A stretch of DNA of 64,000 nt. Origin: Klebsiella phage FKP3. A program made the translations under genes and the position numbers. Under the pieces are notes generated by a model, which was not told where the DNA came from, ran no database searches, and saw only the letters and a list, made by a program, of their open reading frames with translations. Where the stretch lies: the sequence record PP895363.1, one strand, 5' to 3'. This document shows positions 4,496 to 58,669 of the stretch, in pieces; positions within the stretch are counted from its first letter, which is position 1; each line of letters starts with the position of its first letter.

Positions 4496-4592
4496 TTGTT
4501 TCCCCTAAGTCGTTTTACAAAAGATAATCTGCCCTAGAAAAGGGCAGATCTATAAAAGTACTTTACCATACTTTTAATACTTTTGTCAATCT

Positions 4593-9480: not shown

Positions 9481-9556
9481 TGGTACTCCGAACTGGACTC
9501 GAACCAGTGTTTGACGATTATCAGTCGCCTGTTCTTGCCATCTGAACTATCAGAGT
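9481..9556 (-). tRNA. tRNA-Ile (anticodon GAU)
   Basis: Acceptor ACTCTGA/TCGGAGT-A-CCA, T-arm ACTGG-TTCGAGT-CCAGT, anticodon loop CTGATAA; CCA encoded. Confidence 0.6.
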
Positions 9557-9677
9557 ATGAATGTGTGGGCTAGTCTCTTAGCCCTATGCTATACTTGTCT
9601 CTTACAGACTGACGTAGCACACGTGCAGCGACCCTTCATATTTATTTTACATCTACAGAAGGTCATTAGATAGATTT

Positions 9678-9765
9678 GGCAGCAAAGCGAGGAGTCGAAC
9701 CCCTTAGTCTGTGGTTTGGAGCCACATAGAGCGCCATGCTCATTTAAACTTGCTCGGCTATTGTT
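9678..9765 (-). tRNA. tRNA-like gene; the anticodon stem-loop TGTGG-CTCCAAA-CCACA suggests Trp (CCA), but the D-arm and acceptor stem are irregular
   Basis: T-arm AGGGG-TTCGACT-CCTCG, 3' end CTTTGCT-G-CCA; the 5' acceptor has mismatches. Confidence 0.3.
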
Positions 9766-9844
9766 TGGAGTCAGGGGCGGGAGTCGAACCCGCAATCTTG
9801 AGCATATGAAACTCACATGGTAAATCCATTCCACCACCCTGCGC
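9766..9844 (-). tRNA. tRNA with CAU anticodon (Met, fMet or Ile2-like); the acceptor end has two mismatches
   Basis: T-arm GCGGG-TTCGACT-CCCGC, anticodon stem-loop TGAGT-TTCATAT-GCTCA, 3' CCCTGAC-T-CCA. Confidence 0.4.
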
Positions 9845-10282
9845 ATTATTTGGTAGTAACTAAGAGAATCAAACTCTTCTCACAACGCCGTATGAAAGCG
9901 TTCGAAACATCAGCTTCACAGTTACTTTTAATTAAACACGATGAATAATTTTAACTGTCTCGCCTTTATCATTCATCAAATAAGCACTTTCATCTTTGTG
10001 TATGAAGGTGGTAGAACTTCCGCTGATAACGCTGGCAATAACACTATCTGGCTTTTGATAGCCTTCAAAATGGTATTGGACTTTTATGTTACCATCGAGT
10101 TCTATATAATGTTCTTCTTCATCTACATCAAAAGGTACTGAATCATAAATTTTTGTCCCTTGTGGGAACTTACGAATAATTTTTAATGTGTACATAATGC
10201 TTCCTTAGTAGTATTTAGTATTAAATAAATGTGCCGTCCCAAGCCGAACGGCGATTAGTGTTATTGCTTGGCATTGATAATA

Positions 10283-10357
10283 TGGTACTTCCTACAGGAA
10301 TCGAACCTATGACGCTCACCGTGTAAAGATGACGTTCTGCCATTGAACTAAGGAAGT
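10283..10357 (-). tRNA. tRNA-Val (UAC)
   Basis: Acceptor ACTTCCT/AGGAAGT-A-CCA, anticodon loop TTTACAC, T-loop TTCGATT. Confidence 0.6.
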
Positions 10358-10430
10358 ATGGCGGGGATTTCCCGCACTGTCTATCGCGATATGGACTCCG
10401 ACAGTGTTCTCGGTTAAATACCCCATTATT

Positions 10431-10517
10431 TGGTGCTTCAGGTGAGACTCGAACTCACAATCCTCTAGGGCGCTGGCTTCTAAGACCAGAGTGTATATCC
10501 ATTTCCACCACTGAAGC
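10431..10517 (-). tRNA. tRNA-Leu (UAG), class II
   Basis: Acceptor GCTTCAG/CTGAAGC-A-CCA, anticodon loop CTTAGAA, 13-nt variable arm, T-arm GTGAG-TTCGAGT-CTCAC. Confidence 0.6.
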
Positions 10518-10648
10518 ATTATTTAGTATAGGTTAAGAGTTGTATCGGCCCTCTTCTTAAACGGTGAAAGGAAAGTTTGGTTTTTCTCCAAACGTGCTAA
10601 CACCTTTTACATCCACTCTAAGTCATCGGACGCAACCTATATTTTTTT

Positions 10649-10727
10649 TGGTGGAGCCGGAGAGAATCGAACTCTCAACAGGAAAGGTGCAAACCTCCCT
10701 CGCTACCTTAGTACATGCAACCCCAAA
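10649..10727 (-). pseudogene. degenerate tRNA-like element (good T-arm and 3' CCA but no matching 5' acceptor strand)
   Basis: GAGAG-TTCGATT-CTCTC then CGGCTCC-A-CCA; no complementary GGAGCCG upstream. Confidence 0.25.
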
Positions 10728-10856
10728 TTTTTGCGCCCCTTTGTAGTGAATGTCTTTAAGCGGAGTCTTTAATGCAAGCAATAAATTTACTCACACACTT
10801 AATCTTAGACCTACTCAGATGGACGGCTTTAGCATGGCGTCCCATACCTTCTTAAT

Positions 10857-10932
10857 TGGCACGGATGGAAGGAGTCGAACCTCCGGCGCAGGGCTTCGTA
10901 AACCCTCGTTCTGTCCACTGAACTACACCCGT
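10857..10932 (-). tRNA. tRNA-Arg (ACG)
   Basis: Acceptor ACGGGTG/CATCCGT-G-CCA, anticodon loop TTACGAA, T-loop TTCGACT. Confidence 0.6.
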
Positions 10933-11061
10933 ATAATACTTTGCCTAAAACGCCACAACTTGTTTGGTCTTGCACCGTGTCAGTTGCTATTTATCGGTAG
11001 AATTTGAGCCATTAACCTGAGCGAATATTTGTCATGGTTGTCACACCATCAAGGCAAAACT

Positions 11062-11136
11062 TGGTGCAACCTACAGGTATCGAGCCTGTCTATCTGCCTT
11101 TTCAGGGCAGCACTCATCCATCTAAGTCAAAGTTGC
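11062..11136 (-). tRNA. tRNA-Phe (GAA)
   Basis: Acceptor GCAACTT/AGGTTGC-A-CCA, anticodon stem-loop CTGCC-CTGAAAA-GGCAG, T-loop CTCGATA. Confidence 0.6.
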
Positions 11137-11276
11137 ATATTATTAATTGTCATCATGGAAACCGAAAATCCACGCCATATCAACTCGAAGTTAAAAATCC
11201 TTGACTTCGGCACCATCTGGTGCTGGCTAGGCACTACCTAGCAGGACAGTCACAAAATCGTGACGATGACAAAATT

Positions 11277-11354
11277 TGGTCTCCGTAGAAAGATTTGAAC
11301 TTTCGACCCCACCGCCCCAAACGGCATACTCTGACCAGGCTGAGCTACACGGAG
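11277..11354 (-). tRNA. tRNA-Pro (UGG)
   Basis: Acceptor CTCCGTG/TACGGAG-A-CCA, anticodon loop TTTGGGG, T-arm GAAAG-TTCAAAT-CTTTC. Confidence 0.6.
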
Positions 11355-11439
11355 ATAATACTTTCGAGGAGATCTCACCCTATACAGCAAAACCGTATAC
11401 TATCTGTCAGGGTTACTGTATACTGTGCTCCTCTGAATT

Positions 11440-11515
11440 TGGCTGGGGATCTTGGAATCGAACCAAGTCGATGACGAGTTCAAAGCCCGTCGCCTTCCCA
11501 TTTGGCTAATCCCCA
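11440..11515 (-). tRNA. tRNA-Gln (UUG)
   Basis: Acceptor TGGGGAT/ATCCCCA-G-CCA, anticodon loop CTTTGAA, T-arm CTTGG-TTCGATT-CCAAG. Confidence 0.6.
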
Positions 11516-11522
11516 ATTAAAC

Positions 11523-11611
11523 TGGTATAGTGGACGGGATTCGAACCCGCAAGGTAGTTTCCTACTCTAGATTGAAAGTCTAGCTACTTCGACCGATTTG
11601 TATACCACTAT
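11523..11611 (-). tRNA. class II (long variable arm, 3-bp D-stem) tRNA with an apparent UUC anticodon; non-canonical identity
   Basis: Acceptor ATAGTGG/CCACTAT-A-CCA perfect, anticodon stem-loop CTAGA-CTTTCAA-TCTAG, variable arm GTAG-GAAA-CTAC, T-arm GCGGG-TTCGAAT-CCCGT. Confidence 0.4.
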
Positions 11612-11730
11612 ATAAAATTATTTAAAAAGGAATGCTAGAACTTGAAGGAGAAAACCATGAGCGAAAAGAGAAAGTTTTCTAACATTCCTGTCTAAATAAT
11701 CTTGAAATAATCACTTTGTTCAAGAGTTGT

Positions 11731-11807
11731 TGGTGCGGGTGACAGGATTCGAACCTGCGACGAACTGGGTGGAAGCCAGACACTCTACCAGACTGAGTTA
11801 CACACGC
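11731..11807 (-). tRNA. tRNA-Gly (UCC)
   Basis: Acceptor GCGTGTG/CACCCGC-A-CCA (one mismatch), anticodon loop CTTCCAC, T-arm GCAGG-TTCGAAT-CCTGT. Confidence 0.5.
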
Positions 11808-11831
11808 ACTGATTAAGAACTCTACAATATT

Positions 11832-11861
11832 ACTCTACTACATTTTAATACTTATTGTCAA
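11832..11861 (-). promoter_or_regulatory. sigma70-like promoter on the minus strand (TTGACA-N18-TAGAGT) reading into the tRNA genes
   Basis: Minus-strand sequence TTGACAataagtattaaaatgtagTAGAGT. Confidence 0.35.
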
Positions 11862-12056
11862 GTGTTAATTTAAAATTGTGAGACAGTGACGGATATCTCA
11901 TAGATGACTAATCCTACGTCCGGCTTAAGCAAGGCGACGATATCGTACACCTTCTCGTCGATTGGCAGGAGCCGTTCCTCCTGAATTACTATCTAGCATC
12001 TGAGATGAAGACAGCCTCACCAATCAACCTACTCCCAGTCACGGTTTCAGAACTTC

Positions 12057-12132
12057 TGGTGCTCCAAGTAGGTTTCGAACCCACGACCCCATGCTTACAA
12101 GGCAAGTGCTCTACCAACTGAGCTATTGAAGC
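12057..12132 (-). tRNA. tRNA-Thr (UGU)
   Basis: Acceptor GCTTCAA/TTGGAGC-A-CCA, anticodon loop CTTGTAA (one U-U pair in the stem), T-arm GTGGG-TTCGAAA-CCTAC. Confidence 0.5.
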
Positions 12133-12349
12133 AAATAGTATTTTATTATTGAAAGGTATTCCACCATAATATCAAGGTTTGCCGATGCAGTAGTTCGGGA
12201 ACTAGACAATGCCGCTTACGCGCTGGTTATCTCAATTCAAACCCACTGCAAACCGTGGTAGTTGAGGCCAGTTTCTTTTCCACTTGTTTCCACTTATAAG
12301 TCTTAACCAGACCGGGATACGGGCTTATAAGATCATCAATAATAAAATT

Positions 12350-12434
12350 TGGCGATGGATCAAGGATTTGAACCTTGCTGGAGATTTCTCTCACGGATTA
12401 ACAGTCCGCCGCCCAACCACTAGGCCAATCCATC
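12350..12434 (-). tRNA. Ser-like class II tRNA (G73, 3-bp D-stem, long variable arm) with an apparent GUU (Asn-decoding) anticodon
   Basis: Acceptor GATGGAT/ATCCATC-G-CCA, anticodon stem-loop GCGGA-CTGTTAA-TCCGT, variable arm GAGA-GAAA-TCTC, T-arm CAAGG-TTCAAAT-CCTTG. Confidence 0.4.
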
Positions 12435-12511
12435 ATTATTCTTTGTTAAGAGTAGGCGCGTATTCCGTCGCCTCGTGTTATTTTCTCCTGTTTCCAGGCT
12501 CCCTTTAGAGC

Positions 12512-12587
12512 AGCGGGCAGGGAGAATCGAACTCCCTTAGCATCTTTCAGCAAACCCGAAGGTCATTGTCTAGCCACGACCACCCGC
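12512..12587 (-). tRNA. tRNA-like gene, fold unresolved (good T-arm; acceptor pairs via G-U; no clean anticodon arm found by eye)
   Basis: GGGAG-TTCGATT-CTCCC, 3' TGCCCGC-T without an encoded CCA, 5' GCGGGTG. Confidence 0.3.
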
Positions 12588-12624
12588 ACAGTTATGTGTA
12601 CCTCTAAAGCTCTCTTAACTAATC

Positions 12625-12708
12625 TGGTGTGGGTAGATGGATTCGAACCACCGCGCCTTTCGGATCTGATTTACAGTCAGGTGCATTCAGCCACTCTGCC
12701 ATACCCAC
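12625..12708 (-). tRNA. tRNA-Tyr (GUA), class II
   Basis: Acceptor GTGGGTA/TACCCAC-A-CCA, anticodon loop CTGTAAA, long variable arm, T-arm GGTGG-TTCGAAT-CCATC. Confidence 0.55.
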
Positions 12709-12782
12709 ATTATCTGGTGTGGTACTTGTTACTGATTCTTCTGACGATACAGATACCTCTCATATAACTTTCCCACATTATC

Positions 12783-12859
12783 TGGTACGCCGGAAAGGAT
12801 TCGAACCTTTATTCCTCTCGTTAAAAGCGAGATGCCTTATCCAGTTTAGCTACCGACGC
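12783..12859 (-). tRNA. tRNA-Lys (UUU)
   Basis: Acceptor GCGTCGG/CCGGCGT-A-CCA (G-U pairs), anticodon stem-loop TCTCG-CTTTTAA-CGAGA, T-arm AAAGG-TTCGAAT-CCTTT. Confidence 0.6.
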
Positions 12860-12967
12860 ATAAATATTTTTTAAGATAGCAACCGCTTAACGATTGCTAT
12901 AAGTTAAGGTTACTTTTAAACAATAAATCAATCACCAATAACATCCTTGCTATCTTAAAAAACACTT

Positions 12968-13053
12968 TGGCGGAAGAGGGGAGGGTTGAACTCCCACGCC
13001 CTTTCGGACGGCAGTTTAGCAAACTGCTATGGCTACCATTTCATCACTCTTCC
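12968..13053 (-). tRNA. tRNA-Ser (GCU), class II
   Basis: Acceptor GGAAGAG/CTCTTCC-G-CCA, anticodon stem-loop GCAGT-TTGCTAA-ACTGC, long variable arm, T-arm GGGAG-TTCAACC-CTCCC. Confidence 0.6.
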
Positions 13054-13057
13054 TAAA

Positions 13058-13507
13058 TTAATTTCCTTTCGTTCTGTATTTGATGGCTCTTTTTTCAGGA
13101 TCGTAGTTTTGTTTTCTTCTTTCCTGTTCGAGCAATCTTGCTTGTCTATATGCAACAGAACATTCTTCACAACGGCAACCTCTTTTTTGATACGCATAAC
13201 TTGTACCGTGAACGATAGGTTTTTCAACCCTGTTTATTACCGTCCCAGTTTCACTTACACGTCTTGCTGCCGCAGAGTTACAGCTATGATGGCTATAACT
13301 AATATTCTCTAACCCAAAGAACATCTTATCTGGTTCCTCTGAATATCTCCAAGGAACAATGTGTTCAATGCTATAATTGTCTTCGTTCATCTCTTTACCA
13401 CAATGGTAACAAGAAGTTCTTCCTGTCTCGACAATCATTTGCCACATGAGTTTTCTTATCAGAATGTTTCGCGCTTTTCCCATCGACATACCTAACTCGT
13501 CGCTCAC
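13058..13507 (-). CDS. HNH endonuclease embedded in the tRNA cluster
   Basis: Motifs CYHCGK...EHIVPW...HHSCN; likely GTG start at 13507 with SD AAGGAG (the ORF track extends to 13555, which overlaps the pseudo-tRNA). Confidence 0.55.
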   Translation of the reverse strand: MSDELGMSMGKARNILIRKLMWQMIVETGRTSCYHCGKEMNEDNYSIEHIVPWRYSEEPDKMFFGLENISYSHHSCNSAAARRVSETGTVINRVEKPIVHGTSYAYQKRGCRCEECSVAYRQARLLEQERRKQNYDPEKRAIKYRTKGN

Positions 13508-13526
13508 GATACACTCCTTATAAATT

Positions 13527-13605
13527 GGCGCGACTGACGATACTCGAACTCGCATTCTCTCCTGTGACAGGGGAGTACCATTACCTAGCCAGCCCCGCGA
13601 CTATA
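13527..13605 (-). pseudogene. degenerate tRNA-like element
   Basis: TTCGAGT T-loop motif and a 3' ...GTCGCG-CCA, but no complementary acceptor and the anticodon region forms a triloop hairpin. Confidence 0.2.
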
Positions 13606-13607
13606 AT

Positions 13608-13733
13608 TTATAAATCTGGTCGTTCATCTCTGTTAACTAAACGGATACCACCGTCAGATAAAACTTCAAGTTTTGAATATTGATAAACTACGACCTTGTT
13701 ATCACTCATTGTTACTCCGGTTAATACAAGCAT
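13608..13733 (-). CDS. small hypothetical protein, 41 aa
   Basis: SD AGGAGATTATAATG; MLVLTGVTMSDNKVVVYQYSKLEVLSDGGIRLVNRDERPDL. Confidence 0.3.
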   Translation of the reverse strand: MLVLTGVTMSDNKVVVYQYSKLEVLSDGGIRLVNRDERPDL

Positions 13734-13751
13734 TATAATCTCCTAAGTTTG

Positions 13752-13841
13752 TGGCGGAAGATAACGGAGTCGAACCATCACCATATCGCTACAGCGGGCT
13801 GGTTTTCAAGACCAGTTGCGTACCGCTACGCCCTATCTTCC
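13752..13841 (-). tRNA. tRNA-Ser (UGA), class II
   Basis: Acceptor GGAAGAT/ATCTTCC-G-CCA, anticodon stem-loop CTGGT-CTTGAAA-ACCAG, long variable arm. Confidence 0.55.
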
Positions 13842-13856
13842 ACATCTATACTTACT

Positions 13857-13886
13857 ACTCTATCATACTTTTCAATCAGTTGTCAA
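13857..13886 (-). promoter_or_regulatory. sigma70-like promoter on the minus strand (TTGACA-N18-TAGAGT)
   Basis: Minus-strand sequence TTGACAactgattgaaaagtatgaTAGAGT; the -35 hexamer also lies in an inverted repeat TTGTCAA...TTGACAA. Confidence 0.35.
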
Positions 13887-13917
13887 GAAAAACTTTCCAC
13901 CTTTTTTGACAATTATT

Positions 13918-13992
13918 TGGTAGAGCCACTAGGAATCGAACCTAGACTGTAGAGTTAGAAGCTCCATTTGCTATCCATTACAACATAGCTCC
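13918..13992 (-). tRNA. tRNA-Arg (UCU)
   Basis: Acceptor GGAGCTA/TGGCTCT-A-CCA (G-U pairs), anticodon stem-loop TGGAG-CTTCTAA-CTCTA, T-arm CTAGG-TTCGATT-CCTAG. Confidence 0.5.
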
Positions 13993-14006
13993 ATTTATTT
14001 AGGCCA

Positions 14007-14036
14007 ACTATAACACACACTATTCGTTATTGTCAA
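14007..14036 (-). promoter_or_regulatory. sigma70-like promoter on the minus strand (TTGACA-N18-TATAGT)
   Basis: Minus-strand sequence TTGACAataacgaatagtgtgtgtTATAGT. Confidence 0.4.
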
Positions 14037-14189
14037 GCTCTTTTTTAATTTCTTTTTTAGCTTTCTGACGTTCAGTAGCTTTACACACTTCTTGCCAAGA
14101 GTCGTACTCATCTCCTTTACGATAGCCACGGCTACGACAAAGAGAACATAGACAACCTTCTTGACTATATTTCAAACCATGAGGTTTCA
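14020..14189 (-). CDS. small Cys-rich protein, 56 aa
   Basis: SD AAGGAAACTC-ATG; MKPHGLKYSQEGCLCSLCRSRGY... Confidence 0.3.
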
Positions 14190-14198
14190 TGAGTTTCC

Positions 14199-14450
14199 TT
14201 AGATTATCAGAGTTTTAAACTTAATGCAAATGATTTTCTTCTTACCGCCTACATACTGCCAATGATGTATCTCCGCAGCTACTTCTAGGGAAGTTCCTAC
14301 TTCACGGTAGGCGTGAGTGATTACATCAATCCAGTATTCACAATCAGGCTGATAAATCATACTGTAGTGCTTATCAATCAACGTATTGATACCGCCGCAA
14401 TCTCCAATTGTCTTACGCCACGGTGTACTCTTCATAACAAACTTTTCCAA
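14199..14450 (-). CDS. hypothetical protein, 83 aa (may start at the internal ATG at 14436)
   Basis: ORF overlapping the upstream small ORF through an ATGA junction. Confidence 0.3.
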   Translation of the reverse strand: MEKFVMKSTPWRKTIGDCGGINTLIDKHYSMIYQPDCEYWIDVITHAYREVGTSLEVAAEIHHWQYVGGKKKIICIKFKTLII

Positions 14451-14572
14451 GTTTTATCAGGAATTTCTGATGGAGGAATCTTACCTTCTGTCTTGGCTTT
14501 ATCGTCTACTGCTTTTTTAATAGCTTGAACCTGTGCCTCGGTTAAAGGGCCATCATCTTTTTCGTATGCCAT
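14433..14572 (-). CDS. small hypothetical protein, 46 aa
   Basis: Strong SD TAGGAGAAATATA-ATG; MAYEKDDGPLTEAQVQAIKKAVDDKAK... Confidence 0.3.
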
Positions 14573-14787
14573 TATATTTCTCCTATTTATTATCAAAACA
14601 CATAAAGGAGGACAATGATCAGGTGACGTTTGCCAACGCCCTGCCGAAGTTTAGAGATGGTTGCAAATCATCCCCAACCGCATCACTGGTTTAAACTCAC
14701 ATGATCAGTGCTTGTTTCTGGATACTCACACGCCCATACGTGCAGACAGTTTTAACGCCAATCAATGCCTTTCTTTATATGTTCTGT

Positions 14788-14912
14788 ATGGTTGACTGCT
14801 ACAGGACTTGAACCTGTTTCTCTTCGCGCGGATTTACGTTGTACCAACATGTGAGGAATCGAACCTCTCCACTACCCTACCGAAGCGCATATACCTATCA
14901 TGCTCATACAGT
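14788..14912 (-). pseudogene. two adjacent degenerate tRNA-like remnants (T-arm-like motifs without full cloverleafs)
   Basis: ACAGG-TTCAAGT-CCTGT...CAACCA and GAGG-TTCGATT-CCTC; no complementary acceptors at the correct distance. Confidence 0.2.
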
Positions 14913-14914
14913 CA

Positions 14915-14990
14915 TTGGAGGATGATATGGGATTTTAACCCATCTAATACTGTTTTGCAGACAGTCTCCTAGACACTCGGACAATCATCC
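14915..14990 (-). tRNA. tRNA-Cys (GCA)
   Basis: Acceptor GGATGAT/ATCATCC-T-CCA, anticodon stem-loop ACTGT-CTGCAAA-ACAGT, T-arm ATGGG-TTAAAAT-CCCAT. Confidence 0.55.
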
Positions 14991-14999
14991 CATTGAAAA

Positions 15000-15077
15000 T
15001 GGTGTGACTGGTGGGGCATGATCCCACATCATCTCCTTCACAGGGAGAAACGTTAACCAGCTTACGCTCACAGTCAC
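15000..15077 (-). tRNA. tRNA-His (GUG) with an atypical T-loop (ATCATGC) and a G at position -1
   Basis: Acceptor GTGACTG/CAGTCAC-A-CCA, anticodon stem-loop TCTCC-CTGTGAA-GGAGA, T-stem GTGGG/CCCAC. Confidence 0.45.
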
Positions 15078-15285
15078 CATTGATTTTGCAGTTGCTATTC
15101 TCCTTAAACACCGCACATACGGTATTAAGCAGAATAACTTTCGTGCTGCTTCACGATGTGGAGTTCCCCACATTGAAGTTTGTTCACACTTGTCACAGTG
15201 CTTCTCTTCCGAGTAAACCACTCTCGTAGTTGCTGACAAACAACTCGTAAAATATATTCTCGTAAGAACATATATTGCGAGAGTT

Positions 15286-15426
15286 TGGCACCAGGAGGAG
15301 GAATCGAACACTCCTAATCAGGTCATGACTCCTGACTATCTCAAACCAAACACTGTTGTGTCGGCTATTGCATAATAGCGAGCGCTCACTCCTATGCAGA
15401 CCTTCACCAGTGTCGAGATCCTGGTA
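15286..15426 (-). other. about 140-nt tRNA-like element: complementary acceptor strands (ACCAGGA ... TCCTGGT-G-CCA) separated by about 125 nt, with a T-loop-like TGTTCGATTC and internal hairpins; possibly an interrupted or insert-containing tRNA
   Basis: Sequence inspection only; no canonical cloverleaf fits. Confidence 0.2.
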
Positions 15427-15431
15427 TTGTT

Positions 15432-15520
15432 TGGTGCGGGTAGTGGGAGTCGAACCCACAGGAGGAAACCCTCCGAGGGATTTTAAATCCCTTGCGTACT
15501 GCCAATACCGCCATACCCGC
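15432..15520 (-). tRNA. tRNA-Leu (UAA), class II
   Basis: Acceptor GCGGGTA/TACCCGC-A-CCA, anticodon stem-loop AGGGA-TTTAAAA-TCCCT, long variable arm, T-arm GTGGG-TTCGACT-CCCAC. Confidence 0.6.
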
Positions 15521-15531
15521 ATTAAATTTAG

Positions 15532-15606
15532 TGACCCCCGGAGGATTCGAACCTACCTACCTCTCGATTATGAGTCGATTGCTCATACCTAATGAGCTTG
15601 AGGGCC
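15532..15606 (-). tRNA. tRNA with CAU anticodon (Met, fMet or Ile2), no encoded CCA
   Basis: Acceptor GGCCCTC/GGGGGTC-A (G-U pairs), D-stem GCTC/GAGC, anticodon loop CTCATAA, T-loop TTCGAAT. Confidence 0.45.
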
Positions 15607-47107: not shown

Positions 47108-47844
47108 GTGAAACTTTATGAATTTATTAAATTGGAGGATGATAAAGACTTATTTATCATAGGGGATTTACACGGATGTTACGATCTCTATAAAAAGGAG
47201 AAAGAGTTTTAGGAATTAGAGATACAGATTATGTTATTTCTCTCGGAGATCTTACTGACAGGGGTAAACAAAATCTGCGATGTGTAATTGAATTCACACG
47301 TAAGTCTAACCGTTTTGCTATCCGTGGTAATCATGAAGATATGCTAATTAAAGGCATGTTAGAAGGTAGTAGAGATTACTATGAATGTTGGTATCAGAAT
47401 GGTGGTCATACTGTTTGGAGTGAGCTTGGGGAAGATGGTGTTAGTCTACTAGCGACAATGGTAGAAAATCTCCCCGTTGTTTTAGTAGTAGAACATAGAG
47501 GTAAAAAGTTAGCATTTATACATGGAGGTTATCCTTCTGCTTATGAATATTTACCAGTAATAGAGATACCTAATCTAGGATTATCTAAGGAAAAGGAAAA
47601 TATTTTTGCAGAGTCTTTAATGTGGGATAGGGATATGATTTCCTGTGCTCAGGAGGGGATTTCTTTGCCTGAAGTATTAGGCGTAGACTATGTGTTTCAT
47701 GGTCACTCTTATGTACCTGAACCATTAATAAATGCTAATCGTATATACATGGACACAGGAAGTGTATTCAATAACAACCTCACCTTCACATATTTTAATA
47801 TGGAAGGAGAATTACAATTTTATTCAACTCTTGAGGAGGATTAG
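47108..47844 (+). pseudogene. lambda-type Ser/Thr protein phosphatase interrupted by a frameshift in a short A-run (or a sequencing error or programmed shift)
   Basis: GTG start with SD GAGGAG: VKLYEFIKLEDDKDLFIIGDLHGCYDLYKKEKEF* then, in the -1 frame, ...GIRDTDYVISLGDLTDRG...RGNHE...; the frame change lies in tataAAAAggagaaag around 47190-47205. Confidence 0.5.
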
Positions 47845-47863
47845 TGGTTACAATCAATAATAG

Positions 47864-48013
47864 CCAACTCAAAGATGAACACAACTATTGTCCACATTGT
47901 GGCGGGTTAGTTAACTTCAAAGAATGTCGTGTTCTTTTGGTTAGCCCTCCGATCAGACAATACTATTGCTCAAGCTGCCACAAAGTGGCAATATCTATTA
48001 GAGGAGATTAAAT
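47864..48013 (+). CDS. Zn-ribbon protein, 50 aa
   Basis: GTG start after GAGGAGGA; CPHCG...CSSCH. Confidence 0.3.
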
Positions 48014-48275: not shown

Positions 48276-48848
48276 ATGCAAGGATTATTTTATACTGGTG
48301 TAGGAAGTAGAGATATTTCCGATGAAGAATGGGATATAATGGTTGCTGTTGCTAAATGGTTAGCACAGTGGCTTAAGTTAAGATCAGGTAAGGCAGGAGG
48401 CTCCGATTCTGCATTCGAGTATGGTGTGTCCTTGTCCAACTTTCCTGATAATAAAGAAATTTACATTCCGTGGCCTAAATTTGAAGGTAATGAAATAGCA
48501 GGGGAGAAAATTTGTCTTGACAGCCCTGATACAATGAACTACGCTATAAGCGTTAAATATGCAAAAGAAATACACCCAGCTTGGGATAGATTATCTCAAG
48601 GGGCTAAGAAATTGCATCAACGTAATGTTCATCAGGTGCTAGGGAGAGATTTAGAAAATCCTGTTCCCTCTTTATTTTTATTGGCTTGTTCAGATGTAGA
48701 TAAAAATGGGGATGCAAAAGGAGGGACTAGAACTGCATGGATGTTAGCAAAACAGTTTAATATCCCTTGCTTTAACATACGAGGTAAAAGTAAACGGGAA
48801 ATCTTTGAATTCATTAAACCTATTCTAGAGGAGACAATTAATGCTTGA
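48276..48848 (+). CDS. Rossmann-fold DprA/Smf-like (SLOG-type) protein (putative)
   Basis: YTGVGSRDISDEEW glycine-rich motif; 190 aa. Confidence 0.25.
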   Translation: MQGLFYTGVGSRDISDEEWDIMVAVAKWLAQWLKLRSGKAGGSDSAFEYGVSLSNFPDNKEIYIPWPKFEGNEIAGEKICLDSPDTMNYAISVKYAKEIHPAWDRLSQGAKKLHQRNVHQVLGRDLENPVPSLFLLACSDVDKNGDAKGGTRTAWMLAKQFNIPCFNIRGKSKREIFEFIKPILEETINA

Positions 48849-49362
48849 AGCATGTCTGAGAGGAGGAGAACGTACTAATGTGAGTCATATGCATCACGAT
48901 CTCGTAGATTTAACTAAGACTATCCAAGGGCGTGTACGAGATACCCTTCACCAAGGTACTCGTTTTGTTATGGACAAAGTAGACTTTCTTTATCATAATT
49001 GCGATGTCTTCTTGACACGAGATAATGTTGCATATACTATTCCATTTTATCCGCTAGATAAAGATTTAAGTCAACAAGAGATTGAAGATATTAATCTTCA
49101 TTTCTTAGGGTATGTTCCATTTGAAAACACTGTACTACAAACATTCACTACCGTGATGGTGAATGAGATTTTACGTGCAATTGTTCGTGAGTTAGATAAC
49201 GGAGCACAAAAAGTAGCTGTGCATTTTGCTCCTGCTGATACTATCCAGTATGCAGGGACTACAGCGTATCCTTTATATGGGTTCATTTCAAATAATACCC
49301 TGCAAATGGAAACTTCTTTCTTCATTGAAATTATTAAAGAATCAGAAGGAGTGAACAAATGA
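48841..49362 (+). CDS. hypothetical protein, 173 aa
   Basis: ORF. Confidence 0.3.
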   Translation: MLEACLRGGERTNVSHMHHDLVDLTKTIQGRVRDTLHQGTRFVMDKVDFLYHNCDVFLTRDNVAYTIPFYPLDKDLSQQEIEDINLHFLGYVPFENTVLQTFTTVMVNEILRAIVRELDNGAQKVAVHFAPADTIQYAGTTAYPLYGFISNNTLQMETSFFIEIIKESEGVNK

Positions 49363-49517
49363 AAACTATCGAGCAACTGATTGCAGAAAAGTTAGAAGAA
49401 GCTATTGTTATGGCTCGTGCTGAGGGTTTAGGGCATGATTATTTCAACATTGCTTTAGAAGATGGGGAAAATGTTGAAGTAAATGTTTCTTGGCGTAGTT
49501 CTTCTTATGATTGTTAA
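49359..49517 (+). CDS. small acidic protein, member 1 of the W-x-SSS-x-C C-terminal-tail family (52 aa)
   Basis: SD GAAGGAGTGAACAA-ATG; ends ...VNVSWRSSSYDC*. Confidence 0.4.
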   Translation: MKTIEQLIAEKLEEAIVMARAEGLGHDYFNIALEDGENVEVNVSWRSSSYDC

Positions 49518-49532
49518 CTAGGGGAGGGTTGT

Positions 49533-49817
49533 ATGGCAGGCTTAGAACATTCTTTTGTGGAGTCTTGGGAAGGCTGGGATGAGGTAGGTAGTGCTGGTGA
49601 TCTTTGTTTTTATGATTGTAAACTTCTACCGCATATCCAAGATATTGCTCCCGAAGGTACAAAGCATACAGTCATGATTTTTCTAATGAGTGAATCAACT
49701 GTACAATTTGATTTTTATTCACACTATGGGGATGAAGACCGTTGCGACGGTTACTTAGGAAGTAAAGCATTTAAAATTAAAGCAGTATTGGAAGAGGAGA
49801 TACCTTGTGAAGAATAA
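49533..49817 (+). CDS. hypothetical acidic protein, 94 aa
   Basis: ORF. Confidence 0.3.
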   Translation: MAGLEHSFVESWEGWDEVGSAGDLCFYDCKLLPHIQDIAPEGTKHTVMIFLMSESTVQFDFYSHYGDEDRCDGYLGSKAFKIKAVLEEEIPCEE

Positions 49818-50229
49818 ATATGTGGCTGGGCAAGTATTCGAAGATAATTGGGGTGATGAAGTAGCTCGCATTGTGTTTGCTGATGGTGTTTGGTCTAGTG
49901 ATGAAGATCAAGCAGCATATCTGGAGGAAGTTGGAGAACTTCCTAACGATCTTGTATCTCCAATTCTTTATGAATTTATGTATCACGACGAGTATGTAGA
50001 CGGTACTCGATCTATTAAAGAGTTTGTAAGGGAAAATGGTTTAATCGATGTAGCAGAACGGGAACAGAAAGATCGTGAACGTCAGCATATTATTGATACC
50101 TTAGTTGCAATGGGTGTTGATACTTCAGACTTCATCGTCTCAGAAGGCCGTGCATATATTGGAGCACAAGAATGTGAAGATTATATTCAAGGGACTCATG
50201 CCTGGTGCTCTAGTAGCATGACTTGTTAA
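49807..50229 (+). CDS. acidic protein, family member 2 (140 aa)
   Basis: Ends ...GTHAWCSSSMTC*. Confidence 0.4.
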   Translation: MKNKYVAGQVFEDNWGDEVARIVFADGVWSSDEDQAAYLEEVGELPNDLVSPILYEFMYHDEYVDGTRSIKEFVRENGLIDVAEREQKDRERQHIIDTLVAMGVDTSDFIVSEGRAYIGAQECEDYIQGTHAWCSSSMTC

Positions 50230-50238
50230 GGGGATAAA

Positions 50239-50676
50239 ATGTATAATAACATTGACAACCTTCGTGTAGGTGAAGATTACTACGATCTGAGTAGCGGCGA
50301 ATATAAATTTACCGTTTTGTTCTTGGGTGATGAAGATGAGCGGCTTCATGTGGAAGGTATTCCTCTCGAAGTTAAACCTTATTGGACAGATGATTACATG
50401 CTGACCACATGGGCTTATAACAAAGAGACTATGGAACCTATTCAGGAAGATGCAATCTATGATTATTGCTACAACAATGTTATGGTGAGTAAAGAACGCC
50501 TGGATGAAATCAACACTGCTAAACAGGTGCTGATGAATCTCTGGGAAGAATCTGGTATCCAAGAACCTTTCGTCTACGAAGACGGAAAGTTTAGTGTAGG
50601 TAAAGAGCAAGTTCTTTCAGCGCACATTAACGCTGGATATGAGCATGGTTGGATTTCAAGTAGTATTTGCTGGTAA
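50239..50676 (+). CDS. acidic protein, family member 3 (145 aa)
   Basis: Ends ...EHGWISSSICW*. Confidence 0.4.
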   Translation: MYNNIDNLRVGEDYYDLSSGEYKFTVLFLGDEDERLHVEGIPLEVKPYWTDDYMLTTWAYNKETMEPIQEDAIYDYCYNNVMVSKERLDEINTAKQVLMNLWEESGIQEPFVYEDGKFSVGKEQVLSAHINAGYEHGWISSSICW

Positions 50677-50691
50677 TAATAGGAGATAAAA

Positions 50692-50886
50692 ATGAGTGAA
50701 TTTAAAACAGTAAGTGAAGCAGTAGCTGCCGCATATGCAGCACTAGAAGAAGCGCAGCGCCTGTCTCTGGAAACTGGAGAGGGTTTCAGTTTTAACCCAG
50801 CTTACGGTATGGGTGGTTGCTTTGACCCAGAAGAAGAAAATGAGTATACTGGTGATAACTGGTTCCCGTCTTCTCTTGGTTGTTAA
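50692..50886 (+). CDS. acidic protein, family member 4 (64 aa)
   Basis: Ends ...GDNWFPSSLGC*. Confidence 0.4.
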   Translation: MSEFKTVSEAVAAAYAALEEAQRLSLETGEGFSFNPAYGMGGCFDPEEENEYTGDNWFPSSLGC

Positions 50887-50895
50887 GGAGATAAA

Positions 50896-51120
50896 ATGAG
50901 TCGAGATATTGACGCTGTAATGGCAAAAGCTTTAGAAGCGCAGAAGACCATCCGTGAACTTGAAGAACTAGCTCATCAGAACGATTTCGGTTTTGAGATC
51001 ACTTGTAGCGGAGAAATGACCTTCGAAGATTGGCAGTCTTCTGATTGTTTTGGCGAAGGAAATTCCGAAACGTTTGGAGTGTACGCAGATGGATCAGTCT
51101 GGGTCACGTCCAGTTGCTAA
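50896..51120 (+). CDS. acidic protein, family member 5 (74 aa)
   Basis: Ends ...DGSVWVTSSC*. Confidence 0.4.
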   Translation: MSRDIDAVMAKALEAQKTIRELEELAHQNDFGFEITCSGEMTFEDWQSSDCFGEGNSETFGVYADGSVWVTSSC

Positions 51121-51184
51121 TGAATTGCTCTGGTCATTCCTGATGCCAGAGCTAAACTTAATCGCAGAAGCAGAGGAGAAGAAA

Positions 51185-51454
51185 ATGGAAAAACGTGATT
51201 ACGATAAAGAAATTCAAGAGCTGACTAAAGCCGCAGAAGAATATGTGGAGACGGTGAAAGATCAGATCGCCGCTTTGGCTGACGAGGGTGGTGTACAAGC
51301 CTACTGGGGTGAATATGGGGAAAATGGACAAACATATTATCCTAAAGGTACAGATATTGAAGAATATTACCTGGGCTGGCGAGCAAGTGAATATGCCGAT
51401 GAGGAAGGTAAACTAACTCAAGGTATCTGGGTGTCTTCTTCAGAAATGTGTTAA
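51185..51454 (+). CDS. acidic protein, family member 6 (89 aa from the internal ATG with SD GAGGAGAAGAAA)
   Basis: Ends ...TQGIWVSSSEMC*; the track ORF 51050..51454 is in the same frame. Confidence 0.4.
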   Translation: MEKRDYDKEIQELTKAAEEYVETVKDQIAALADEGGVQAYWGEYGENGQTYYPKGTDIEEYYLGWRASEYADEEGKLTQGIWVSSSEMC

Positions 51455-51465
51455 ATGACAAGAAC

Positions 51466-51492
51466 CCGCTTCGGCGGGTTTTTTATTGTCTA
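51466..51492 (+). terminator. strong rho-independent terminator
   Basis: ACCCGCttcgGCGGGT followed by tttttatt. Confidence 0.6.
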
Positions 51493-51555
51493 AGTATTGA
51501 CATTGGTTATAATACTAAGTAAACTCTATCTATCATTTAAGAGAGGAGAAACATT
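51493..51555 (+). promoter_or_regulatory. putative promoter (TTGACA ... TAAACT) upstream of 51556
   Basis: tatTGACAttggttataatactaagTAAACTctatc. Confidence 0.3.
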
Positions 51556-52485
51556 ATGATTATGGTTGGTAGCCGTGGTTTAGAGATTCAATTAGAACGG
51601 GAGGCTAAGAAATTTTATCGCCCTTGTCTTGATCTTGACTTTCTTTGCACAGAGAAGGAGTGGAGTATAGCATTCATCCGTTACACCCACGAAGAAGGGG
51701 TTGAGCTTGTGGAACGTACTGGCAACAAAGGTCATGTCAAACTAACAGATGGGACACATATCGAGTTTGATATTGCTCAACCGGGCGATAGCACAGATAT
51801 TCTGATCCAATATTGCAAGGCAAGCCCACAGAGTATGTTCCTTAACAACGGTGATTTCGTGGCTCCGGTAGATGTTCTGTATCTTCTGAAAATGAGTCAT
51901 CGTTATAAGAAGAACAGTCCACACTTTTTCAAGACCATGAACGACATTCATTTCATGCGCTCTCTTGGGGCTAAAATTCCGCCGGAGTTAGAAGAAGTAT
52001 TCAAACTGCGTGAGAAAGAAACCTATAACTATTCTCACCCAAACCTGGATGTGAAGAGCAAAGACTTCTTCAAAGGCGACGAAGTACCATATGTGTACGA
52101 TCACGACACCATTCACGAAGCGGTGGCAGTGCTCGGTGTTCCTGCATACAAATCGTATATGAAAGATGATAGCGAAGTGATGACCTCCAAAGAGAAGTTC
52201 TTTGAGCAGGAGAATCATATCCGTCTTCTCGGTGTGTACGAAGAAAGCTGTGTCTTAGCACTGGAACGTTCGCAGATCCCTTTTAATTTTGAAGTTCCTG
52301 CTCGTCAGAGTTTTGTTATGGCTTTGAGCAAGGTTTGCACCTCTATAACGTCAGGCTGGTTTAGGGAATATGCCTACGAAAATTTCCACGTAGTTATGAA
52401 GTTCTACGAATCTATGGGTGAGGATGATTATATTGAGCGTTTCAAGGCTAACAGTCACATGGTTAAACCATTTCAAGGAGATTGA
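51556..52485 (+). CDS. hypothetical protein, 309 aa
   Basis: SD GAGAGGAGAAACATT-ATG. Confidence 0.35.
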   Translation: MIMVGSRGLEIQLEREAKKFYRPCLDLDFLCTEKEWSIAFIRYTHEEGVELVERTGNKGHVKLTDGTHIEFDIAQPGDSTDILIQYCKASPQSMFLNNGDFVAPVDVLYLLKMSHRYKKNSPHFFKTMNDIHFMRSLGAKIPPELEEVFKLREKETYNYSHPNLDVKSKDFFKGDEVPYVYDHDTIHEAVAVLGVPAYKSYMKDDSEVMTSKEKFFEQENHIRLLGVYEESCVLALERSQIPFNFEVPARQSFVMALSKVCTSITSGWFREYAYENFHVVMKFYESMGEDDYIERFKANSHMVKPFQGD

Positions 52486-53175
52486 ATGAGTAGAGTAGTA
52501 TGGTCGTTGTTTGACGGTAGTGGTATCATGGTACTGCCTTGGGCAGAAGCAGGGTATCGCTGTTTCTGCTTTAACGCTGAGAATGGAGATCATGGTTCCT
52601 ATGAGAGCAGGGTTCGCCACCCTTTAATCACTTATGTTGACTGTTGGATTGATAAAGATTTCAACCCCGAAGGTTTTTATCTAGACCTCTGTCATCCAAT
52701 CAATAAACCAAATATTATTTTCGGATTTCCTCCTTGCACGATGTTAGCTGGTAGTGGAGAACAACACGAGCGTACTGTGGAGGAAATCCAAGAAGCCTTA
52801 GAGAACGTCCGTATTGTCGAAACTCTGGGAGATAAATACAGCGTGCCGTGGATGATTGAGAACCCAGTGGGTAAACTATCCACATTATGGCGTAAACCGG
52901 ATTATTACTTCGATCCATATGAGTTTGGTGGTTATCTCCGTAAAGAGGAAGGTAGTTATCATCCTAAGATGCCAGCACAGGATGCTTATACGAAGAAAAC
53001 TTGTCTTTGGGTGGGAAATGGTTTTATCTTCCCGGAGAAACGTGCTGTAGAACATATTGGCTTCTTTTGGGCCTGGAAATATTTAGGTGGGAAGAGCCAG
53101 AAAACTAAACAGTTGCGATCTCTCACCCCTCGTGGTTTTGCTCGCGCAGTATTCGAAGCTAATAGAGGTGTATAA
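52486..53175 (+). CDS. short DNA cytosine-5 methyltransferase-like protein (229 aa)
   Basis: LFDGSGIMVLPWAEAGY (motif I-like FxGxG), GFPPCTMLAGSG (motif IV PC) and ENPVGKL (motif VI ENV-like); too short for a canonical target-recognition domain. Confidence 0.4.
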   Translation: MSRVVWSLFDGSGIMVLPWAEAGYRCFCFNAENGDHGSYESRVRHPLITYVDCWIDKDFNPEGFYLDLCHPINKPNIIFGFPPCTMLAGSGEQHERTVEEIQEALENVRIVETLGDKYSVPWMIENPVGKLSTLWRKPDYYFDPYEFGGYLRKEEGSYHPKMPAQDAYTKKTCLWVGNGFIFPEKRAVEHIGFFWAWKYLGGKSQKTKQLRSLTPRGFARAVFEANRGV

Positions 53176-54811: not shown

Positions 54812-55428
54812 GGTATGGGGTAGCCATTAACGATGCACCCTACAAAGTAAGAGAGAATGGAACCCTCTGCCCTATTTATACTTGTTGGGATAACATGCTT
54901 AAACGGTGCTATGATCCTATAGTGCAGAATAAACACCCCACGTATACTGATTGCACAGTCTGTGAAGAATGGTTGCAATTTTCCAATTTCCATGCTTGGA
55001 TGGTTAGCCAAGATTGGGAAGGTAAGGAGTTAGATAAAGATTTACTTAGCGGGGAAAGTAAGGTGTACTCTCCTACTCACTGCTGCTTCTTACCAAAACA
55101 CATTAACTCTACCATAAAAGATGTTAAAACTGGCTCCCTCCCGTTAGGTGTGAGTTACAAACAAAGATCTTCGGACATGACACAAGAATTAAAACGCCCC
55201 TACCAAGCCCGAATCTCCGTTGGTGGTAAGAGAAAACAATTAGGGGTGTTCGAAACTGCGCTTGAAGCACACCGCGCATGGCAACTTGCTAAAGTTGAAG
55301 TATTAAGAACTTTAGCTTTGGATTTAGAGCCTATCTTGTCCCAAGCTATGTTACAACTTGGACAGCAAATAATGGGAGACTACATGACAGGAATAGAAAC
55401 AACAAAATTAACAAGGAGGCCAAAATGA
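54778..55428 (+). CDS. AP2-domain DNA-binding protein, paralogue of 21397-22068
   Basis: LPLGVSYKQRSSDMTQELKRPYQARISVGGKRKQLGVFETALEAHRAWQLAK (AP2-like) plus a shared N-terminal CxYxxW...NPTYxxC...EWLQFSNF block. Confidence 0.45.
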   Translation: MPRDSLRPRKLRYGVAINDAPYKVRENGTLCPIYTCWDNMLKRCYDPIVQNKHPTYTDCTVCEEWLQFSNFHAWMVSQDWEGKELDKDLLSGESKVYSPTHCCFLPKHINSTIKDVKTGSLPLGVSYKQRSSDMTQELKRPYQARISVGGKRKQLGVFETALEAHRAWQLAKVEVLRTLALDLEPILSQAMLQLGQQIMGDYMTGIETTKLTRRPK

Positions 55429-56237
55429 GAAGACTTTTGATCGTGAGCGGTGCTGGACTTAGCGCCGATAGCGGTGTGCGTACATTTCGTACCGATACCG
55501 ATAGTGGGAAAGCACTATGGGACGAGTATGATCTTGCTGAAGTGTGTGATATTGGTGCATTCCAAGCTGGCTATCGCCGCCGTACATCCCCTGATGTGCC
55601 TGTTGTAGGTGGTATTGATGATGACGGGATGGATTTGTACGAGAAGACCAACAATTTCTACAACAAGCGTCGTGTAGAACTAGCAACTGTAGAGCCTAAC
55701 GCAGCTCACTTGCAAATTGCTAAATGGTTTGCAATGGCTCCTGAGCGTGTCTACAACATCACGACTAACGTTGATGATCTGTTGGAACGTGCTGGTGTGG
55801 CTCGTGAATCTGTACTCCATGTTCACGGCTATTTACCTGAGATCCGTTATCGTTTAGAGCCTAGTTCTCAAGAAACACTGGTGGACGTTGGCTACGCTCA
55901 TGTGGATATCGACGCATTCCACTGGGTTAAACCTAATGTTGTGTTCTTCGGTGAGGCTGCACCTCTTTACACCGACATGTATGCACTATTCGATACTTTA
56001 ACTGCTCAGGATATGGTGATTGTAGTTGGCTGCTCTAACCAAGTAATCAACTTTAACTGGGAACTGTTTCCTGCGCTAAACATGGGAACCAAGATGATCG
56101 TTGTTAACCCCGGCTTGAATTATCTTGAACAAAACCTCTATGAAGAAAGGGGAGTCGTTGTTTACTATGCAGGAGCTGCTGAGACCTTCAGCAATGCACA
56201 TTTCATTAAGATGGTGGAAGATCATCTGAATGGATAA
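55425..56237 (+). CDS. Sir2-family (sirtuin/CobB-like) NAD-dependent protein
   Basis: LLIVSGAGLSADSGVRTFR matches the Sir2 signature GAGISxxSGIPxFR; later VVGCSNQV as in sirtuins. Confidence 0.55.
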   Translation: MRRLLIVSGAGLSADSGVRTFRTDTDSGKALWDEYDLAEVCDIGAFQAGYRRRTSPDVPVVGGIDDDGMDLYEKTNNFYNKRRVELATVEPNAAHLQIAKWFAMAPERVYNITTNVDDLLERAGVARESVLHVHGYLPEIRYRLEPSSQETLVDVGYAHVDIDAFHWVKPNVVFFGEAAPLYTDMYALFDTLTAQDMVIVVGCSNQVINFNWELFPALNMGTKMIVVNPGLNYLEQNLYEERGVVVYYAGAAETFSNAHFIKMVEDHLNG

Positions 56238-58513: not shown

Positions 58514-58669
58514 TTCTTCCGGTTTATCTCGGTTTGGGGAATATACATGGGATGGATTGAAACCTTTAAAACTGCCTCGGCCTTTGCGAGGACAATTGAA
58601 AGTCTTAGCTTGATGATCTCCAAATGACTTACCACAATGCGTACACTTAAAATTAGTTTCAGTAAACAT
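58514..58669 (-). CDS. Zn-ribbon protein, 52 aa
   Basis: SD AGGAGAATTAC-ATG; CTHCG...CPRKG. Confidence 0.3.

Follow-up and report, generated by a model that had tools for sequence, protein, structure and literature searches.

Relation to described nucleotidyltransferase systems

The described systems closest to the locus analyzed here are built around Pol-beta-type nucleotidyltransferases. RlaP adds one or two nucleoside monophosphates (NMPs) to the 3'-OH ends of RNA (PMC12776372; PMC7824862), MntA polyadenylylates a protein encoded beside it (PMC7641770), and the gene of MenT1 lies immediately downstream of that of MenA1, a 68-amino-acid (aa) antitoxin that blocks its active site (PMC10435456). 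The present analysis concerns a stretch of 64,000 nucleotides from Klebsiella phage FKP3 (PP895363.1; hereafter the window), a phage of the Stephanstirmvirinae. At 49359-51454 on the plus strand, the window carries an array of six genes (g1 to g6) for small acidic proteins that end in a common C-terminal tail, followed by the gene of a predicted Pol-beta-type nucleotidyltransferase of 309 aa (51556-52485, plus strand).

Comparison with the MenT/AbiEii family reveals both likeness and difference. The Pol-beta fold with its G[ST] and DxD motifs is also predicted for the phage enzyme, but the latter is not a sequence member of the family (DUF1814) according to Pfam and to a profile search of the PDB. 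Small upstream genes are present here as well, yet they belong to no known antitoxin class (AbiEi/COG5340 or MenA1-like). Where MenT1 is paired with MenA1, the phage module has one to six upstream partners, and their shared C-terminal tail is not related to any MenA. Unlike MenT/AbiEii, the module is encoded by phages and essentially missing from the genomes of cellular organisms.

The HepT-MntA type VII system, in which MntA nucleotidylates a neighbouring small protein, is the nearest precedent to the mechanism proposed below (PMC7641770). MntA, however, is a minimal enzyme whose target is a Tyr in a HEPN RNase, whereas the 309-aa phage enzyme has a large conserved C-terminal domain; its partners are multi-copy, carry a Ser/Cys tail and match neither HEPN nor any other Pfam family (15 tail proteins searched). 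RlaP (PF10127) is a Pol-beta enzyme of phages and bacteria, and its association with RNA ligase is echoed by distant relatives of the phage enzyme that occur without tail proteins. RlaP itself has no tail-protein partners, however, and the tail-linked enzymes have no conserved RNA ligase neighbour. The antibiotic nucleotidyltransferases ANT(2'')-Ia and LnuA differ further, being ~160-180 aa long, without DUF7275, specific for small-molecule substrates and with no link to tail proteins.

Among family libraries, PHROGs 899, 4882 and 23943 ('unknown function') already hold tail proteins, but these are split among the three, and neither the shared tail nor the link to the enzyme family (phrog_2141) is recorded. 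An earlier note, made from the sequence of the window alone, had not recognised the tail from any described family, and this impression was borne out: Pfam (15 tail proteins), NCBIfam and PADLOC returned no match, PHROGs returned only 'unknown function', and the literature and family libraries searched held no account of the motif, of the function of the small proteins or the enzyme, or of their pairing. The module is undescribed in these libraries and in this literature, and neither the enzyme nor its partners have been named.

A six-gene array with a shared C-terminal tail

All six genes lie on the plus strand, encode acidic proteins and are preceded by a strong GGAG-type ribosome-binding site. 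The first, g1 (49359-49517), is supported by its open reading frame (ORF) and ribosome-binding site and encodes 52 aa ending in WRSSSYDC. It is followed by g2 (49807-50229, 140 aa, WCSSSMTC), which has a GTG start and an N-terminal extension, and by g3 (50239-50676, 145 aa, WISSSICW), in which the Cys is penultimate. The last three, all assigned to phrog_899, are g4 (50692-50886, 64 aa, WFPSSLGC), g5 (50896-51120, 74 aa), whose six-residue tail WVTSSC belongs to a short class, and g6 (51185-51454, 89 aa, WVSSSEMC). For g6, the ATG at 51185 that follows GAGGAG is the most plausible start, over an overlapping TTG at 51050; another ATG lies at 51143.

The earlier note had described six consecutive plus-strand ORFs. 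Their coordinates were confirmed, but the series is interrupted by a gene without a tail between g1 and g2 (49533-49817, plus strand), which encodes an acidic 94-aa protein of phrog_4991. Similarly, the shared tail is present on all six proteins and kept by their orthologues, with the qualification that the Cys of g3 is not the final residue. The 94-aa protein contains four Cys, and the 3' end of its gene overlaps the GTG start of g2 by 11 nucleotides; the gene is retained in the related phages KP13-26 and KP2025 and shows no link to the module in other phages.

The pattern given in the earlier note was counted in a six-frame translation of the window and compared with shuffled sequence. It occurs seven times, against a shuffle mean of 0.55. 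Six of the seven occurrences are the 3' ends of g1 to g6, each preceded by a ribosome-binding site, on one strand and within 2.1 kb; the seventh ends a stop-to-stop stretch of seven residues at 58605-58622 on the minus strand. No further sizeable ORF of the window carries the tail. A chance origin of the six tails is excluded.

The region shares 90-93% identity with Klebsiella phages KP13-26, phi1_175008 and KP2025. These are Stephanstirmvirinae of ~145-150 kb, and their genes in this block all bear the annotation 'hypothetical protein'. The reach of the family is far wider. A tblastn search with g6 found relatives in 447 deposited phage genomes, many of them T4-like phages of Escherichia, Aeromonas, Klebsiella, Enterobacter, Serratia and Yersinia. 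For instance, the Mosigvirus Bas46 has a tandem trio ending in WVSSSALC, WVASSHTC and WVSSSYSC, with a 318-aa homologue of the 309-aa enzyme (50% identity) one gene beyond it. At the corresponding position T4 has e.2 and nudE, neither of which carries a tail.

The tail genes are linked to a single enzyme gene

The association of the two components was examined in both directions. In the forward test, 80 viral loci were chosen solely for the presence of an enzyme relative (38-95% identity), on contigs ranging from T4-like sizes up to >350 kb. Their ORFs of at least 40 aa, ~7,100 in total, were scanned for W..S.{1,3}C at the extreme C-terminus. Within 4 kb upstream of the enzyme, 202 tail ORFs were found, all of them sharing its strand; the opposite strand had none upstream, and the remaining ORFs together gave 11 matches. 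Tail ORFs are present in 70 of the 80 loci, in one to five copies each. Several of the tail-negative loci hold variant tails (WESSESSEC, WESSEKCW, WLPSSWESC), and one enzyme-bearing lineage has its tail gene on the other strand, at a distance of 6 kb from the enzyme.

The reverse test gave the same picture. Six records from additional genera were found through a tail protein alone (Marfavirus, Winklervirus, Tegunavirus, Tulanevirus, a Citrobacter phage and a Serratia phage), and all six have the enzyme gene on the strand of the tail gene, 40 bp to 2.6 kb downstream of it. Among 185,579 bacterial and archaeal species, represented by one genome each, only five enzyme loci were found, all on contigs of metagenome-assembled genomes and all five with tail ORFs directly upstream of the enzyme. 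The module is essentially restricted to phages.

All-versus-all clustering of the neighbourhoods provides further evidence. The tail family and the enzyme are the only conserved families; every other neighbour is lineage-specific and occurs in at most 17 loci. Furthermore, the pair is found at genome positions that differ among T4-like genera. In Aeromonas phage 25, for instance, it adjoins nrdD and gene 49 and not the e-tRNA region, which indicates that the pair relocates as a unit. The two families thus form a widespread two-component phage module of multi-copy tail proteins and a predicted nucleotidyltransferase.

Conventional searches recover little of this. A word-indexed protein search with the alignment of the six proteins returned only close relatives, from phage contigs of ~150 kb, and an exhaustive HMMER profile search of 1.8 billion proteins gave no more than 11 hits, as the proteins are too short and have diverged too far for such a search. 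The rule that combines the motif with synteny picks up members that are invisible to sequence search.

The invariant core of the tail

The tails collected in this way redefine the motif. The earlier note had written it as W-x-[ST]SS-x(0-2)-C; this formula does not hold across the family, in which the invariant part proved to be W-x-x-S-x(1,3)-C at the C-terminus. When tails were selected on the Trp and the terminal Cys only, the residue at W+3 was Ser in 201 of 202 and Thr in the remaining one. Conversely, when they were selected only on W-x-x-S near the end, the Cys was last or penultimate in 216 of 227 (95%), against a background of 3% of other ORFs ending in Cys. Two length classes account for the tails, W-x-[SPA]-S-S-x-x-C (n=149) and W-x-x-S-x-C (n=52).

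The conserved Ser is encoded by all six codons, drawn from both codon families, which indicates selection on the protein and not on the DNA; a DNA-level cause of the conserved tails is ruled out by this codon diversity. In addition, the orthologues of each paralogue (79 database proteins) retain their own version of the tail almost unchanged.

A natural variant occurs in Acinetobacter phage ZZ1 (locus coordinates 2372-2826), where two small proteins encoded before the enzyme end in WSASSENS and WYASND. Trp and Ser are retained in these tails and the Cys is lost, so they could reveal the role of the Cys.

One tail on divergent acidic bodies

The description of the bodies as acidic proved accurate, with net charges of -7 to -19 for g1 to g6. 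Across the family the median charge is -8, and 97% of the tail proteins carry a net negative charge; the terminal Cys is the sole cysteine in half of the members. No position N-terminal to the Trp is conserved, and the bodies have in common only an acidic, Gly/Tyr-rich character. The proposal that nothing in the sequence but the C-terminal tail is conserved is upheld.

The earlier note had also seen a locally duplicated family, which applies to only part of the array. After removal of the tails, an iterative profile search among 196 bodies converged for g4, g5 and g6 on one superfamily of ~148 bodies. The bodies of g1, g2 and g3 showed no connection to this superfamily or to one another, and that of g2 matched only its own orthologues. 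Profile matches to phrog_899 agree with this division: g4, g5 and g6 match with E-values of 8e-8, 1e-5 and 4e-11, and g1 to g3 do not match, although g1 has a weak match to phrog_4882 (E-value 0.052). The tail proteins of other phages fall in phrog_899, phrog_4882 or phrog_23943. With bodies split over at least three PHROG families that profiles do not connect, the same tail is carried by proteins whose bodies are either unrelated or unrecognisably diverged.

At 52-190 aa, the tail proteins are predicted to form folded domains. No fold match was found for the small proteins, and they show no similarity in fold or sequence to known acidic nucleic-acid mimics of the Ocr/ArdA type.

The partner enzyme

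The enzyme family is present in at least 733 deposited phage genomes and has >2,300 database relatives (protein clusters). A Pfam scan at E <= 1 identified only DUF7277 in the N-terminal part and DUF7275 in the C-terminal part, with no match to AbiEii/DUF1814 or to PF10127, and RlaP was rejected as the identity of the enzyme for lack of the latter match. Sequence searches of the PDB, with the single sequence and with a profile, returned nothing, MenT included. Residues G5-S6, D26-x-D28 and E70 are invariant and correspond to the Pol-beta nucleotidyltransferase signature.

The structural model of the enzyme is a confident one, with a predicted local distance difference test score (pLDDT) of 91.6. 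Foldseek searches with it identified MenT1, CCA-adding enzymes and ANT, and the closest folds are those of the MenT tRNA-modifying toxins and of the antibiotic nucleotidyltransferases ANT(2'') and LnuA. These fold relatives transfer an NMP to a hydroxyl, MenT to the tRNA 3'-OH and ANT(2'') and LnuA to the antibiotic. Signature and model together identify the enzyme as a predicted member of the Pol-beta superfamily of nucleotidyltransferases, with its catalytic residues intact.

The C-terminal domain gave no structural match with Foldseek. It is marked by a further cluster of invariant residues: K112, S114, H115, K126, H183, D184, H187, E229, E230, E237 and R238. A reading of H183-D184 as an HD phosphohydrolase was rejected, as no HD-domain structure is among the fold matches. 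Residues specific to the tail-linked enzymes were also sought and proved not to be discriminating: the differences between tail-linked and tail-less enzymes are uninformative because they track phylogenetic distance.

Proposed mechanism and points against it

The tail is the sole feature shared by the small proteins, and the enzyme is the sole gene shared by their neighbourhoods. On this basis the tail is best viewed as an interaction element, and the enzyme and the small proteins probably contact each other physically through it. The earlier note had suggested that the tail could be a tag for modification, interaction, targeting or degradation, perhaps in an anti-host or packaging-targeted effector. 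The almost constant proximity of a predicted nucleotidyltransferase gene lends support to modification or interaction, and nothing was found in favour of a packaging or degradation signal.

In the mechanism that we propose, W-x-x-S-x(1,3)-C-COOH would be a common handle by which the enzyme recognises its diversified small acidic proteins. The tail would insert into the active-site cleft, and the enzyme would move an NMP from a nucleoside triphosphate onto the hydroxyl of the invariant Ser, so that one enzyme would serve many clients. The modified proteins would then act on the host via their divergent acidic bodies; that the clients are host-directed effectors is a guess. Nucleotidylation of the Ser is favoured because the fold relatives transfer nucleotides to hydroxyls and because MntA offers a precedent, and a reactive hydroxyl is in keeping with the strict use of Ser, which almost never gives way to Thr. 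Many clients are favoured because a genome may hold up to six diverged paralogues, each with conserved orthologues, and because one tail is found on bodies of at least three PHROG families. Covalent modification of this kind, with one enzyme and many clients, is held tentatively, as a real possibility that falls somewhat short of an even chance.

Several observations weigh against this proposal. The protein-modifying Pol-beta enzymes that are known (GlnE, GlnD, DrrA, MntA) target Tyr and not Ser, and the invariant Cys has no role in a simple model of Ser nucleotidylation. In an AlphaFold2 model of a tail protein, the Trp and the residues after it form the final beta-strand, so the tail may be partly buried and not a free tag. 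Within the window, an intrinsic terminator-like hairpin (51460-51483, plus strand; 10-bp stem and T-run) marks the end of the transcription unit of the array. It is followed by two overlapping promoter-like sites ahead of the enzyme gene, TTGACA-17-TAAACT at 51497-51525 and TTGTCT-16-TATAAT at 51486-51513, both on the plus strand and both identified by consensus match only. Terminator and promoter thus lie between the array and the enzyme gene.

The wider enzyme family adds to these difficulties. It is broader than the tail family: distant relatives of ~250-260 aa occur without tail genes in a Vibrio phage, in DSS3_VP1 (locus coordinates 1830-2810), in Streptomyces phage Faust (2836-3483) and in Gordonia phage Cucurbita (5850-8290). 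Three of these four adjoin RNA ligase or tRNA genes, an RNA ligase lying next to two of them, which suggests from gene context that the enzyme ancestrally acted on RNA ends, like RlaP or MenT. The core residues are alike in tail-linked and tail-less enzymes. These relationships suggest that the tail proteins were a later addition in one large branch of the enzyme family.

Alternative explanations

An inhibitory or regulatory role would reverse the relation between the partners. Bound to the enzyme, the small proteins would obstruct its active site or control access to it, the tail serving as a plug that imitates a substrate. Mimicry of tRNA by the acidic body and of the tRNA 3' end by the tail is conceivable, as is coordination of a metal in the active site by the Cys thiolate. 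MenT1 is the closest structural relative of the enzyme and MenA1 likewise lies upstream, matching the gene order, and the strong acidity of the bodies is in keeping with the idea. Invariant H115, H183, D184, H187, E229 and E230 could bind a metal within reach of the terminal Cys, and the RNA ligase and tRNA neighbours of the tail-less relatives suggest an RNA substrate open to competition by a mimic. A single inhibitor would be enough, however, and yet there are up to six diverged paralogues with conserved orthologues and differing bodies. Many enzyme-bearing phages have no tail protein, which argues that the enzyme is not obligatorily toxic on its own; the separation of array and enzyme gene by terminator and promoter speaks against an inhibitor as well, and no sequence or fold similarity to MenA1 or to AbiEi-type antitoxins was found. 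We regard this role as unlikely, while giving it some weight.

Alternatively, the small proteins could be adaptors or specificity subunits, with the tail docked on the enzyme and the divergent bodies steering it to tRNAs, other RNAs or host proteins. Such a role would account for a conserved tail on divergent bodies, for the multiple paralogues and for the constant proximity of the enzyme, and in genus-level record counts the tail protein never exceeds the enzyme. Against this, an invariant Ser and terminal Cys would be unusual for a purely non-covalent docking peptide, and uniformly acidic bodies are a poor fit for RNA binding; we consider adaptors improbable.

A similarly low probability is assigned to independent functions of the two components, in which the tail would have a role apart from the enzyme, for example as a contact to a host protein, as a metal or redox-sensitive thiol or as a signal for stability, and the adjacency would reflect a co-inherited accessory cassette. 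The terminator and promoter that separate the two in the window are in its favour, as is the lineage whose tail gene lies 6 kb from the enzyme on the other strand. Adjacency is nevertheless kept across Straboviridae, Stephanstirmvirinae, Otagovirus, contigs >350 kb and uncultured viruses while the other neighbours change, and the pair relocates together, a pattern that is hard to explain without functional coupling.

The last alternative resembles the maturation of ribosomally synthesized and post-translationally modified peptides. The enzyme would nucleotidylate or phosphorylate the Ser as a leaving group, and elimination followed by attack of the Cys would close a C-terminal thioether ring, between Ser at i and Cys at i+4 or i+2; in a variant, the protein would be a scaffold on which the terminal Cys becomes part of a small molecule. 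Lanthipeptide synthetases are an established example of such leaving-group logic. The invariant Ser(W+3)-Cys pair shows only two spacings (i+4 in 149 tails and i+2 in 52), a fixed Ser/Thr-Cys spacing as in lanthipeptides; in favour, too, are the near absence of Thr in place of the Ser and the likeness of several precursors beside one enzyme to precursor-peptide arrays. This chemistry is nonetheless very improbable, as no dehydratase, lyase or cyclase of the LanB/C/M/KC/L types was matched by Pfam among the neighbours, no third family is conserved, the small proteins are predicted folded domains rather than leader-core peptides, and we know of no nucleotidyltransferase of this fold that performs thioether-type chemistry.

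Genomic surroundings of the module

The gene directly after the enzyme (52486-53175, plus strand) encodes a 229-aa protein that is labelled 'DNA cytosine methyltransferase' in KP2025 and has no Pfam or NCBIfam match. In ~10 loci, the lineage without upstream tail genes among them, a homologue comes after the enzyme. At the other edge of the array, KP13-26 (locus coordinates 4360-4803) and KP2025 (3381-3824) have an extra gene of 147 aa between a 173-aa gene and g1. It is absent from the window (at ~49360), which points to an insertion or deletion at this edge.

Other accessory genes on the plus strand nearby encode a DprA-like/YspA protein (48276-48848, phrog_768), a SIR2-family protein (55425-56237, PF02146) and a 55-aa zinc-ribbon protein (47844-48011). 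These neighbours fit an auxiliary or host-takeover region. The GC skew changes sign at ~20 kb and ~56 kb, together with switches of the coding strand, and the module lies in the plus-strand block between them. A set of 23 tRNA genes covering most amino acids is located 35 kb from the module (9481-15606, minus strand); it may be relevant to the module, since the closest structural relatives of the enzyme act on tRNA 3' ends.

Implications for phage biology

A tail with three invariant residues on up to six unrelated-looking proteins per genome, combined with one enzyme, is characteristic of a system for recognition or modification. The boldest reading is that of a new viral system in which a single nucleotidyltransferase serves an encoded repertoire of small acidic proteins through a Trp-x-x-Ser…Cys tag. 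It has a substantial chance of being right, though one well below even, and could take the form of Ser nucleotidylation, of a Ser/Cys thioether ring, or of a protein-nucleotide conjugate that mimics a tRNA 3' end. If it is true, the tail proteins would form a family of effectors, activated by the enzyme, for host takeover or anti-defence, and the phages would have a new kind of protein tag and of post-translational modification.

More generally, if the small proteins are modified or docked by the enzyme, the tail would be a new viral protein tag, and several large families of 'unknown function' would acquire a role. The module could reveal host-takeover or anti-defence effectors, or a new form of control over a tRNA-directed enzyme. 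Bas46 and other model-adjacent T4-like phages able to grow on E. coli K-12 are among the carriers of the enzyme family.

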